DNA from: Eledone cirrhosa
Lineage: Eukaryota
Reading direction: 5' to 3'
Length of the DNA stretch: 64,000 nucleotides
Assembly: GCA_964016885.1 (NCBI GenBank)
Contig: OZ024740.1
Location: forward strand, 187,054,001 to 187,118,000
Below the pieces are notes generated by a model, which was not told the origin of the DNA, searched no databases, and saw nothing but the letters and a program-made list of their open reading frames with translations. Positions 10,810 through 32,937 of the stretch are shown one piece after another (position 1 is the stretch's first letter; every line of letters begins with the position of its first letter). Made by a program: the position numbers and the translations under genes.

Positions 10810-11180
10810 ATTTATTAAAATAACAGATTAAAGTTTAAACAAAGAATCGCTGCTTTCACCCTTAACGGGATCTTCTGAAGCTAAAAAAATCAATCTGTGA
10901 ATGCAGAAGTAAATATTTCGAAAAACGTTGCAACCGAAGGAAGATAGGAAGACGATACTTTGGTTTGTGGAAACGTACCCTGGCAAAGAACGCAAAAGAA
11001 TTGTTCAGAGATTGATTTTTTTAGTTTCAGATGATCCTGTTAAGGGTGAGAGCACCGATTCTTTGCTTAAACTTTAATCTGTTATTTTAATAAATATTTG
11101 CCCTACGGTTCTTATATATTTCATATATATTTATCCTTATCGAGCCCTCTTTGGATTTCAGTCTTCAAATTTATTATTAC
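10810..11180. mobile_element. Fold-back element of the multicopy 'CAGAAGA-HHR' family
   Basis: 10810..10901 is inverted at 11004..11095, followed by an ~85-bp tail. HHR folds at 10832..10882 (-) and 11023..11073 (+). Confidence 0.8.
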
Positions 11181-11385
11181 TATATATATATATGTATGTG
11201 GTTCCCACACATTATTTGTCTACCGAATTTCACTTTCAAGTTTTTGGTTGAACCAAGACTATGGTAGAAGTTATTCATTGAAGTTGCTGCACAGTGTAAT
11301 TGAACTTGGAACCAAGTGGTTTGCAGAACACCTTACGTAGCCACATGGCTGTTACCTGCCTTCATATCTTTCATTATTATTTCCT

Positions 11386-11579
11386 GGGCGGTGGATTGGC
11401 AGTATCGCTAGAGGGTCGGACGCCATGCTTTCCAGCATAGTTACGTCCCTTTACGGTCTGAGTTCAAATCCCGCCGAGGTTAACTTTGCCTTTCATCCTT
11501 ACGGGGTCGATAAAATATAGTACCAGTAATGTACTGGGTATTTGATGGCCTTGTGCCAAAAGTAGAAACAATTATTATT
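11386..11579 (+). mobile_element. tRNA-derived SINE, family A (Meta-domain-like core, (TTA)n tail), with TSD
   Basis: B-box GAGTTCAAATCCC, core GCCTTTCATCCTTACGGGGTCGATAAAAT..GTACCAGT, and flanking duplication ATTATTATTTCCT(GG) at 11373 and 11571. Other copies near 12700, 21090, 22620, 23140, 23360, 25540, 29230, 31915, 33880, 34320, 35220, 35450, 39410 and 58210. Confidence 0.8.
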
Positions 11580-11649
11580 TCCTGGTTTTAATAATTGAAA
11601 TTTAGCTACAATGTGTCACTGCCTTCTGGGCTTGTAGTTCTTTAAATGA

Positions 11650-12250
11650 CATACAAAGCTTTACACCACAGTATAAGTATCACCAAAGATTTTACATAAA
11701 TACCATTGAAATTTCTTATTCCCAACTTTGCAGAATACTTAGCTACCGCAAGCCTTACAAAATAATCAAATATTTACTAATTTACTTACTATCCTCTGTA
11801 ATTGTATTAATTCCACAATTTGATTCTTAGCTTAAAACTCCTTTTACACAGTTTACCAATGCATGATTAATAAATACATTTAAAACCTACATTGGAATAA
11901 CCTCAAACACGTTTCTACTTAGATATAATTCCAACACCTACACCTTTAGAAGACATAACAAGAACATCAAATATTGCTAGCAACCTATATCTGACAATTA
12001 AAAAGTGAATCTGTATTCCCCAATCTAAACTGGAAAATCTTACTTCACAGATCTTACATTGGAGTAATATAAAACCATATAGCTTGTGCACCACTGAGAA
12101 ACTTAAAATACTATTTGCGAAAAATGTAAACTTCAATAGACATTCTGTAAAAAGTTTTTTGCACACAAAGAACATTTACAATTTCAACCTGTTACTTCTC
12201 CCACAGCTAACACATTATTTTACCTTTCTGTCCAACTTTAATTGTAGATT
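11650..12250 (+). pseudogene. Highly decayed PLE GIY-YIG region
   Basis: Translates to KTYIGITSNTFLLRYN near 11882 and LCTTEKLKIL near 12080, with stops and frameshifts. Confidence 0.55.
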
Positions 12251-14617
12251 CATATCTCTTTTCACCAGACTTACTTTTATGAGTACTTAATTACTAATTT
12301 TATATTACTCTTAGGCCTGGAGAGAGCTGGACTCTGCCATGCTTTAAAATGTCCAAGAAATACTGTATGACAATACGGTGCCTCTATGACTCTATCAGGA
12401 GTTACAGTATAAAAGAAAAATATATTACTCCCAGCACAAATTAATCTCCTCTACTACACATGCTGTCACTAAATTATTTTAATGTGTAATTCTTTAACTC
12501 ATATCTAATTTCTTTCTTCCTATTCATTTTTTGATATTATGTATATAGGTGCAGCAGTTGACTTTGTTTCATTTGCTTGACTATTAATTTGTGATTACTA
12601 GCTACCATCTCCTCCCAAACCACTTTAGCTTAAACGTTTACTTTCTTTTAATTCATCCTTAAATCCTTCAATTCGATCTATTGCCTTTCATCATTATCGA
12701 GGTTGACTTTGCCTTTCATCCTTACGGGGTCGATAAAATAAAGTACCAGTAATGCACTGGGTAATTGCTGGCCTTGTGCCTAAAGTAGAAACAATTATTA
12801 TCTTCCTATTATCTCTCAACCATATTTACTTGCTCAATCAACTATCCCTTTGACAAAACTAACAAAACAATGTAATTTAATATATTTTATTCTTAATTAA
12901 GGTTTGTAACATAATCTATATATGATAAATTTAATGTAGGAATAAGTACAGTTTTGAATTATATGCCATACTCTGAAAATATAAACAAATACAATTACCG
13001 TTTGTAATTCTATATATGAAGAGAATAACAAAATGTACTTATATTTGACTAGATATTCATGGCAAGGCTTATAATTTGAAACTGTGATTATATCTACATT
13101 AAATATATTTTAGATATTCTAATATATATTGTGTTGTGCATAACATTTAATATTTAATATCCCAAAATTTCACAAAAGTATTCTATCACATTTCATTTAT
13201 ATTTCTTTACTCACTTCCAGCTTATTTTTATTACTCGTTATACCAAATTCTATTAATTTTGAATTGCATCATATTTTAATATAAACTATTCAGCATTTTT
13301 ATCGTAGCATTGCCCTATTCAAAATTATTATTTCTTTTATCATTTATGATTTCCTTGCAAATCCTTTTTATAGTAGTTCAAATATACTATTTCATTTTAT
13401 TTTATTTACACTACTTTAGAGCTTTTAGTACACTTAACATTTCACTTACTTCCTTGTTATATAACATTTCAATATAAACTATTTATCAGTTTTAGCATTT
13501 CCCTGTTCAAACATATAACCATATTTAATTTTGTCTTAAATACTTGTTCTAAAATTCAAATTTTATAATACATTGAATATACTATTCGAATTAACACTAT
13601 GTTATCACATTTTTGTCCTAATCATTTTTCTATCAGATTAGCTTATAAAGTGAAATATTGTAACATCTATCCAAACAAATTAATCCCCACATGATCAATC
13701 TCCCCAACACTTTGATACAAAACCCTCCTTATGAACTATTCAAAAATATTTCTGGGAACTATTTACAATTCTGATACTTCAAAATTAGTTGAAATATTTG
13801 GAAAACATTTATTGATTCCTCATATGGCAAGCAACTATAATATTTTCTACTTCTATTGCTTCCCTTACATCCAAAATAACAGTTGGTGTACATTTCTCTC
13901 ATGTAAATTCTTCAAATCTAAGTTTTATATTTCATTTGTTCAATGACTACATATTCCATGATTGTCCTTAATACCCTGTACTTTGATAATTTTTTGAGTA
14001 AATACATGAGCTCTCTGCAGGAGGAAAATCTATTAAGTATATAAATATATATATATACATATATACAAGGCATCATCTTCGTCCTCACTGTTCAATGCCT
14101 ATTCTCCATGTATGGAATAAACTGGCTCTCATGTACTGAGGCATGACTGGTCAGGTGACTACGTCCTGCTCATACATTCTACTTTTGGTTTGGCTGCTAT
14201 GACTGAATGCACATCCTTATGCCAACCACTTTATAAGATGTATGGGGAGTATTTTATCAAGTCTTACAATAATACCAGTACTACTGTACTACATTGTGGA
14301 CTGAGGGCTTTTCACCATGGCACCAGCACTACCACCTTACAGGGATAACAAATGAAACAAAGAGTTTTTAATAGCAAACATTGAGAGCACTCAAACAGAT
14401 AGTGTTATGGATACAACATTATTAATATCTTGCACAAAAATCACAGAATCAAGTAGAGCATTAAAATATTATTTACATTAGCTATATATAGTTCTAAAAC
14501 ATTCTTAATGAAGTGCTGTTTCTAGTCTTAAAAACACCCCCACAATTATTACCATAATTAAATGTTAAGAAGCCGACCTTCATCAGTAAGACAATCTTAT
14601 TAATGTGTGTCTGTATA

Positions 14618-31054: not shown

Positions 31055-31098
<44 letters not shown>

Positions 31099-31144
31099 AT
31101 TATATAGATATATATATTCATACATAACATATATATATATATAT

Positions 31145-31920
31145 ATTTATTAAAATAAGAGATTAAAGTTTAAGCAAAGAATCGCTGCTTTCACTCTTAA
31201 CGGGATCTTCTGAAACTAAAAAAATCAATCTGTGAACGCAGAAGTAAATACTTCGATAAACGTTGCAACCGAAGGAAGACAGGAAGACGATACTTTGGTT
31301 TGTGGAAACGTTCCCTGGCAAAGAACGAAAAAAAAAATGAAGATAATACGTCATTATTTGGAGCGGTGAAAACAATTACACGCAAAGACAAAACCACGTT
31401 TATGGTATAAATGTAGTTGTAGACTAATATTCTATTAGGTGGTTCGTGGAGACATTCCCTGGCAATGAACGGAAAAAACGAAGATAATAAATACGTCATT
31501 ATGAGAACAATTACACGCAAAGACAAAACTACGTTTATGGTATAACTGAAGTCGTAGACTAAAATTCTATTTAGGAAACCGGATGATTCTCGGCTTCAGA
31601 GTTAAGAATAATGTAAATAAAATACATATTATATTCGTTTTTTCCCGTTCTTTGCCAGGGAACGTTTCCACGAACTAAAGTATCGTCTCCCTGTCTTCCC
31701 CCGGTTGCAAGGTTTTTTGAAATATTCACTTCTGCGTTTACAGATTGACTTTGTTGGTTTCAGAAGATCACGTTAAGGGTGAAAGCAGCGATTCTTTGAT
31801 TAAACTTTAATCTGTTATTTTAATAAATATTTGCTCTAAGGTTCTTATATATTTGATATATATCTATCCTTATCGAGCCCTCTTTGGATTTTAGTCTTTA
31901 AATTTATTATTATTATTACT
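31145..31920. mobile_element. Long fold-back copy of the CAGAAGA-HHR family
   Basis: Inverted arm 31145..~31630 contains an internal ~130-bp duplication (31303..31437 and 31446..31571). Forward arm ~31634..31920 carries the tail. HHR folds at 31167..31217 (-) and 31756..31806 (+). Confidence 0.82.
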
Positions 31921-32529
31921 TAACTTTGCCTTTCATCCTTACGGGGTCGATAAAATAAAGTACCAGTAGTACACTGGCATAATTGCTGGCCTTGTACCAA
32001 AAGTAGAAACAATTATTACTATATATATATATATATATCATCATCATTATCTTCGTTTAACTTCAATCTTCCATGCTAGCATGGGTTATATATATATATA
32101 TATACACTTATATAAATATATATATGATAAATTTATATATCATCATCATCATCATAATAATAATCATCATCATCACCGTTTTATGTCCGTTCATCCATGC
32201 TAACATGGGTTAGACGAGTTGTCCTGTTGTGGGCAATGCTACGTCGGGGGACCATGTCTTGCTCATACAGAACTGATTTTGGCTTGATTTCTACAAGTGA
32301 ATAATGATTTTGGCTTGATTTCTACAAGTGAGTACTGTATATATGTGTTTTATGTGTATTTGGTGTATACGTTCGTATGTGTGCAGGTACAGGCGTTGCG
32401 TGGGTTTTTGTATGTGTGCGCGTGGTTTTGCAAACCCATGGCGTGTGTTTTCGCGTATGCATGTGTATGTACGTATATGGATGCGTGCATCCATATATTT
32501 AATTATTGTTGATTTCAATAACCTCTGTA

Positions 32530-32937
32530 ATTTATTTACATTATTCTTAACACTGAGCCGATAATCATTCGGTTTCCTAAATAGAATTTTAGACTACGAC
32601 TTCAATTATACCATAAACGTGGTTTTGTCTTTGCGTGTAACTGTTCCACATAATGACGTATTATCTTCGTTTTTTCCGTTCTTTGCCAGGGAACGTTTCC
32701 ACGAACCAAAGTATCGTCTTCCTGTCTTCCTTCAGTTGCAACGTTTTTCGAAGTATTTACTTCTGCGTTCACAAATTGATTTTTTTAGTTTCAGAAGATC
32801 CCGTTAAGGGTGAAAGCAGCGATTCTTATAAATATTTGCGATTCAAATAAATATTTGCTCTACGGTTCTTATATATTTGATTTTATCCTTATCGAGCCCT
32901 CTTTAGATTTTAGTCTTCAAATTTATTATTATTACTA
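32530..32937 (+). mobile_element. Forward-only copy of the CAGAAGA-HHR family ending in (TA)n
   Basis: Reverse complement of the 31145 arm plus tail. The HHR at 32787 is truncated by a small rearrangement. Confidence 0.8.

Follow-up and report, generated by a model that had tools for sequence, protein, structure and literature searches.

Does a hammerhead motif that has lost a conserved core base still cut RNA for the mobile element that carries it, or is it kept for something else? The question is raised by a 64,000-nucleotide (nt) stretch of the Eledone cirrhosa genome (contig OZ024740.1, positions 187,054,001 to 187,118,000; hereafter the window). Six copies of one hammerhead family lie in the window, and in each of them the core turn that normally reads CUGA reads CAGA, with A at position 4 (A4). 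The six were listed in an initial annotation of the window, and we verified their coordinates, their strands and the A at position 4. The consensus given there is identical to the genome-wide family consensus. As shown below, they are fragments derived from a Penelope-like retroelement (PLE). It is not settled why PLEs carry hammerheads (PMC8557442, PMC11167929). For the A4 family, the evidence leans to a non-catalytic role over an active core variant, a choice that DNA alone cannot decide. Positions are numbered with core C3 as 0. Helix I is formed by −5 to −1 and +41 to +45, with cleavage predicted at the +40/+41 bond. Counts given as "by eye" were read off match listings and were not scripted.

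A fixed substitution in a hammerhead homolog

The genome is 3.0 Gb and holds 28,551 exact matches to a 16-base family pattern. From seven copies in 400 kb of unselected DNA, we put the copy number at about 50,000, with a wide error. Where the 5′ flank is intact, position 4 is A in 20,334 copies and another base in 215 (99% A4). The non-A copies are split evenly, as neutral decay would give, with 36 T, 27 C and 37 G among the matches listed (100 of 215; by eye). A looser pattern without the flank gave 1,100 U4 matches and 346 C4/G4 matches. A U4 subfamily in this genome was rejected. An intact 5′ flank is missing from all 29 distinct U4 loci. One of them is unrelated, and the others are mostly fold-back palindromes with position 4 at their centre, or else truncation junctions. 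An old lineage that is 79–84% identical upstream to the young master is likewise A4, as is every lineage. The substitution was already in the amplifying master copy, as the initial annotation had proposed, and the genome-wide consensus has A, not U, at position 4. Core position 4 is also a fold-back hotspot (e.g., L039, L059). The perfect palindromes formed there show CUGA on one strand, and a count would wrongly include them with the canonical hammerheads.

The A4 motif is a hammerhead homolog and not a chance resemblance, as judged from sequence comparison. A hammerhead descriptor that allows one core mismatch scores the family consensus at 24.4. When the 1,100 non-coding nt of the element were shuffled 1,000 times with dinucleotides preserved, no shuffle scored as high. 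The damaged window copy at 31756 was not found by the descriptor, the consensus being above threshold. A covariance model built from 28 metagenomic relatives only gave consensus-like copies 18.5–19.1 bits (E ~0.02), and it matched all six window copies weakly (E 0.06–9.7) among 42 matches. Thus the shuffle test and the relatives-based model both agree with the earlier assignment to the hammerhead family. In the consensus all three helices pair and surround the core in the type I arrangement, and C3 G5 A6 N7 G8 A9, G12 A13 A14, A15.1-U16.1 and H17 are all present; U4 alone deviates. That all three helices pair, as first described, holds for the family consensus and fails for the window copies, each of which carries its own damage. 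Rfam did not call the A4 motif, and it detects just one of six canonical relatives. The three-way fold has −4.8 kcal/mol vs. −8.8 kcal/mol for the predicted minimum-energy fold. In the family consensus the pairing probability of helix I is 0.07, and fold stability is at z ~0 vs. shuffles. The helix I probability is as low or lower (≤0.04) in 11 of 45 canonical relatives.

Canonical relatives keep U4. We compared 77 metagenomic loci with related proteins (37–45% identity). Fifty gave a hammerhead, 49 with CUGANGA and one with U3-A8, all with U4; the remaining 27 gave none, and many of these end early. There are near-duplicates among the 50, and 45 were retained as distinct. The helices of the relatives covary (95 double-changed cells; none of 500 shuffles had as many). 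In relatives and the A4 family alike, helix II is flanked by one additional U on either side (following A9 and preceding G12), a feature shared with the Hydra-clade hammerheads tabulated in PMC8557442. Within this genome, about 2.0 Mb of overlapping loci held seven other hammerhead families with at least 8 matches each, and 130 of their 134 matches have U4. A CUU cleavage site is present in two of these seven, and loop III is 8 nt long in one. Both features of the A4 motif, the CUU site and the long loop III, were therefore rejected as signs of decay, which leaves A4 as its sole odd feature. Core variants also occur among the Hydra-like metagenomic loci: a G3-C8 swap at L141:2596-2644 (+; weak model score), U3 with an altered position 8 at L192:2576-2627 (+), and U3-A8 at L178:2102. 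All three keep U4.

The host element and its known relatives

The six copies are pseudo-long terminal repeat (pLTR) fragments of a PLE of the Hydra clade, as judged from protein hallmarks. The initial annotation was right to see a multicopy hammerhead family; it identified neither the Hydra-clade host nor the overlap with a probable transcription start. Loci that extend upstream of the motif carry a single frame of 709–713 amino acids (aa), with a reverse transcriptase (RT) plus a GIY-YIG domain at the C terminus. The protein has RWR, DKT, a CxCX5C linker, and CxxC and CxH beside conserved E and N, while CCHH is absent (by eye). These motifs resemble the Hydra rows of the PMC8557442 supplement (matched by eye). 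Pfam and PDB searches did not recognize the protein, and gave a GIY-YIG match in one of 26 homologs. The unit is 3,262 nt long. Its motif lies ~850 nt past the RT and GIY-YIG frame and ~200 nt ahead of the ATG of the next copy, at +200. Insertions end 3′ at +69 or +157, in (TA)n; (TA)n insertion, pLTRs, an optional tail and inverted 5′ copies are all present. Among 30 copies of the open reading frame (ORF), changes common to at least four are 16 synonymous and 6 non-synonymous, and singleton changes are 158 synonymous and 297 non-synonymous. These numbers indicate several functional master lineages, the shared changes being mostly synonymous and the singletons not.

Other identities were considered for the element. 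Non-LTR retrozymes are short noncoding tandem hammerhead monomers, and were rejected because the copies here derive by truncation from a 3.26-kb element that has a coding frame; there are no tandem arrays at the motif sites of the window. Identity with Hydra-1_Obim was ruled out, as both protein and motif differ. A search for a closer sister family with the nearest outside protein (55% identity) gave only the A4 family among the best candidates. Six short copies (L109, L126, L431, L435, L448, L453) start at −52, five of them after a GT-rich run, and are possibly a non-autonomous sub-family.

PLE-repeat hammerheads and the Hydra clade are already known, and a canonical pLTR hammerhead has been called universal in that clade (PMC8557442). 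The A4 element shares with Hydra-clade PLEs RW(K/R), DKT, CxCX5C, GIY-YIG with CxxC and CxH, a single frame, (TA)n targets, a tail, inverted 5′ copies, and a sense-strand hammerhead near the 3′ end (PMC8557442). The Hydra hammerheads in the table of that paper all read CUGA, whereas the A4 family reads CAGA, and the clade is given there as <3 kb vs. 3.26 kb for the A4 unit. Helix III differs from that of the metagenomic relatives, 42/45 of which have 0–3 nt loops and a GUH site, in its 7–9 nt non-palindromic loop and CUU site. Minimal PLE hammerheads (PMC4209133) are similar in pLTR location, genome-wide solo copies, low expected activity and occasional core variants. A palindromic, dimer-type helix III is not shared by the A4 motif. 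The variant described in PMC4209133 is a compensated U3-A8 pair, whereas the A4 change is uncompensated and fixed family-wide. Natural core variants described in PMC3088659 (U4C in a viroid, A6C, U3-A8, U10.1-U11.1) show that position 4 can vary with residual activity. U4A is not among these variants, and in the A4 family a purine occupies position 4 across 50,000 copies. Poseidon PAc of Anolis (PMC11167929) shares two RT starts past the hammerhead with an optional tail (+69 and +157 here), AT-rich targets, and the lack of ends at the cleavage site. The PAc ribozyme, in contrast, is canonical and protein-assisted and overlaps the start codon (PMC11167929), whereas the A4 motif lies 200 nt before the ATG, at the probable transcription start discussed below. 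We found no report of a fixed U4A family in the literature, although Lunse et al. (2017), the likeliest precedent, fell outside the search. The A4 motif was not found in the PMC8557442 supplement (File S2 table and search matches). Of the octopus and cephalopod literature, PMC8557442 alone was relevant; the portion of PMC13282606 available to us mentions no ribozyme.

Probable transcription start, insertion ends and catalysis

The 5′ ends of the copies point to a function at the edge of the motif. Among 100 copies collected by a downstream anchor, ~62 extend past −16 and 7 begin exactly at −5 (by eye). About 23 begin within −8 to +4, many as fold-backs (by eye); in a second set, 24/99 begin at −9 to 0. 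Genome-wide, 2,814 copies have a base other than T at −6. Among the matches listed (100 of 2,814), 78 are junctions, with 52 G, 17 A and 9 C (by eye), and the remaining 22 are point changes, mostly to C. A scripted count found G at 17/26 junctions vs. 27% expected (p = 5e−5). By this reckoning, the first base of helix I is the exact 5′ end of about 2,200 copies, and two thirds of these carry an additional G. The TTAGTTT around this base is initiator-like. One example is at 11021..11027 (+) in the window, with helix I starting at the A at 11023. In L1, the G added at 5′ junctions has been ascribed to the cap (PMC11702581), and the Penelope of D. virilis has an internal promoter (PMC2377424). 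We infer a capped transcription start at A(−5). The A at 11023 would be the corresponding start of the family, deduced from other copies rather than from window copy 2, in which it lies. An RT that adds C at any RNA end would also give the G, yet this would still imply an RNA end at −5. An initiator at helix I did not hold up as a clade-wide rule, since it is weak in the relatives (within 9 nt of C3 in 12/45, at varying offsets). About 14 intact copies among the matches listed (100 of 2,814) have C at −6, possibly a minor lineage; the resulting TCAGTT would, presumably, be a better match to the initiator consensus.

Because copies begin at −5 with a G and end at +69 or +157, the motif would overlap the promoter and adjoin the RT start sites. 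The −5 copies reach across the scissile bond as far as the cap, so that their templates were apparently uncut. By contrast, 136 copies begin at the cleavage site (+41), near background, and 0/47 ORF-bearing copies do. The absence of 5′ ends at +41 was rejected as proof of inactivity, because five canonical families also have none (0/33, 0/20, 0/16, 0/8 and 0/8); the other two of the seven control families have a mixed consensus and are uninformative for this comparison.

The position of the start also bears on the idea that A4 was selected as a 3′ splice acceptor, a pyrimidine run plus CAG that would join host exons to the 5′ untranslated region of the element. The motif does present TTTCAG after a pyrimidine-rich run, there is no ATG ahead of that of the frame at +200, and an intron of D. 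virilis Penelope ends at helix I (PMC4209133). However, one copy in 100 begins at +3 (by eye), and the peak of 5′ ends, at −5, lies before the AG. If the RNA starts at −5, the acceptor could be used by read-through RNA only. We regard this as the least probable of the explanations considered here.

We think it somewhat more probable than not that A4 slows self-cleavage to little or nothing, and that the block is kept as an internal promoter and an RNA signal by the RT starts. RNA polymerase II would start at A(−5), making the motif the first 51 nt of a capped RNA. With cleavage slowed by A4, most of this RNA would stay capped and uncut. The element's RT would start at +69 or +157 and copy through the uncut motif. 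An RT that stops at the cap would leave the short copies with G, and one that continued to the 3′ repeat, whether through strand transfer or along a tandem template, would leave long copies with matching repeats. The block would then be held by its promoter and RT-start functions, perhaps as a protein-bound fold. Published work is in line with parts of this scheme. Mutations of the CUGA turn give low activity with no second-site rescue except a 3-8 swap, a turn-wide value and not one specific to U4A (PMC9901934). For a lizard PLE in vitro, catalytic mutants insert unimpaired and unprocessed RNA is the main substrate (PMC11167929). Naiad PLEs are very abundant without canonical hammerheads (PMC8557442).

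Long copies are informative on the rival view that A4 is a tolerated variant. Useful cutting in vivo would then be aided by protein or tertiary contacts, and double cleavage plus ligation would yield a unit circle for the long copies. This is possible, in our judgment, but clearly the less likely of the two. Of 47 ORF-bearing copies, 24 extend past −5, and none stops at −5 or +41, which counts in favor of this rival. In 21 insertions with both repeats, 125/239 variant sites are shared between the repeats vs. 929/12,912 between insertions, which suggests one template copied twice. A circle formed by double cleavage has been proposed for PLEs (PMC4209133), cleavage can be protein-assisted (PMC11167929), and U4C and U10.1-U11.1 are tolerated in nature (PMC3088659). 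On the other hand, the mutagenesis cited above predicts low activity for changes in CUGA. Strand transfer between repeats accounts for the shared variants without cleavage, and 0/24 stops at −5 fits the ~8–10% stop rate of the short copies. Shared repeat variants would be predicted alike by a cleaved and ligated circle and by a strand transfer that leads from the capped end to the 3′ repeat. As the block is without markers, DNA cannot separate the two.

Conservation was examined with lineage variants shared by at least 4% of 319 copies, drawn from 474; loci picked for non-A4, for likeness to a window copy or for +41 ends were left out. Lineage-diagnostic non-CpG sites number 15 in −125 to −7 (119 nt) and 0 in −6 to +45 (52 nt; p = 0.004 vs. 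the upstream rate). There are also 0 in +46 to +64 (19 nt), and in +69 to +151 there are 8 sites in all, one of them CpG. The conserved block starts one base upstream of −5, and a sample anchored outside the motif agrees (97/98 copies). Thus the block is likely under selection among master lineages, going by the distribution of these sites. The initial annotation had asked for conservation or covariation beyond the flanks. The block is indeed conserved beyond them, while no helix covariation exists inside the A4 family, the block being invariant.

The chief challenge to selection is that the motif is a neutral relic, made uniform by recombination or recent homogenization of the 3′ end. In its favor are the lack of covariation, a fold no more stable than shuffles, and the even decay of core (0.9%), helices (1.0%) and loops (1.3%). 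Even decay is expected of dead copies, and therefore says nothing about the master. Lineage markers are strongly linked across the block (e.g., −95 with +122: 68/0/4/10), so that the block has not been swapped independently, and a lineage ~80% identical upstream is still 92–96% identical in the motif. We consider a neutral relic quite improbable.

What the block is conserved for is a separate matter. That core and helices have been frozen across lineages since A4 was fixed is what an active ribozyme would predict. The conservation is, however, equally strong in the loops and in the next 19 nt (+46 to +64), and so is not specific to core or paired positions. In addition, an old sub-lineage with two helix II-breaking changes still moved. 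It is represented by at least four separate insertions with different 3′ flanks, four being found among the matches listed (100) of 28,551. Leaving the autonomy of the sub-lineage aside, these insertions weigh against a strict need for the fold.

Several observations weigh against a largely inactive A4 motif. The other ten core bases and the three helices are unchanged while the flanks diverged by up to 20%, and a dead ribozyme would be expected to lose such bases. U4 is kept in the relatives, and catalysis is therefore normally under selection. Ends near helix I occur in some canonical families too, so that uncut templates are not peculiar to A4. None of the 47 ORF-bearing copies ends at −5. 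Singleton variants are present in both repeats at 18/69 sites, in 10/21 insertions. Finally, the activity left to a viroid hammerhead with U4C is sufficient in vivo (PMC3088659), and protein assists the hammerhead of the lizard PLE (PMC11167929). With these points in mind, we also raise, more tentatively than the tolerated variant itself, a working U4A that acts as a slow or protein-gated switch at the 5′ end. Uncut RNA would be capped and translated, and RNA cut at both repeats would become a circle for full-length copying.

The A4 family is a natural experiment, in that one of the genome's most abundant repeats has spread through many lineages despite a core change expected, from mutagenesis, to be harmful, and it sits beside at least seven canonical-core families in one genome. 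The choice at stake is whether catalysis is dispensable for a successful PLE or U4 is non-essential in this context. If A4 is active, no purine at position 4 would have been shown to work in nature before it, and it would give a handle on the function of PLE hammerheads. The insertion ends point to a start site, two RT starts and a template copied twice, and thereby open the circle model to test. The whole A4 family escapes searches that require CUGANGA.

Element fragments and other hammerheads in the window

The six copies differ in how much of the element they retain. Copy 1 (10832..10882, −; A4 at 10876) has a helix I mismatch and lies in a pLTR fragment at 10810-11000 (−123 to +67), the inverted partner of copy 2. 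Copy 2 (11023..11073, +; A4 at 11029) has A13G, and its fragment at 11003-11182 (−25 to +153) includes the tail. Copy 3 (14701..14751, −; A4 at 14745) has A9U and is a solo fragment at 14677-14785 (−39 to +69) inside a (TA)n tract. A second inverted pair is formed by copies 4 and 5. Copy 4 (31167..31217, −; A4 at 31211) has a helix II mismatch, in a pLTR fragment at 31143-31626 (−414 to +69). Copy 5 (31756..31806, +; A4 at 31762) has mismatches in helices II and III, in a fragment at 31632-31921 (−129 to +159) with the tail present. Copy 6 (32787..32827, +; A4 at 32793) ends within loop III; its fragment at 32417-32938 (−515 to +157) has an internal deletion. A tail-only fragment of the same element at 54089..54171 (−; +76 to +157) has no hammerhead and was absent from the initial annotation.

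The window holds other hammerhead-bearing repeats. An inverted pair at 5050-5097 (−) and 5169-5216 (+) belongs to another family, whose hammerhead has the canonical CUGA together with a CUU site; the plus-strand copy has C3A, and three further copies are in other loci. A head-to-head pair at 19008-19065 (−) and 19072-19129 (+) belongs to an abundant family with a canonical core, a 4-bp helix III and an 8-nt loop, many copies of which begin near helix I. A third, decayed hammerhead-bearing repeat forms a head-to-head pair at 36608-36664 (−) and 36665-36707 (+). At 153-206 (−), a canonical hammerhead with a CUU-type site lies downstream of a 290-aa frame at 565-1437 (−). This frame has a GIY-YIG match (E 6e−4) and is the 3′ part of another Penelope-like family; the piece (153-1437) is interrupted upstream by RT and endonuclease fragments like those of long interspersed nuclear elements (LINEs), at 1450-3637. 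LINE frames with an apurinic/apyrimidinic (AP) endonuclease and RT are present at 7033-10300 (−) and 50072-52261 (−), the first of which stays open for ~1,000 aa, with a PHD finger at its C terminus.

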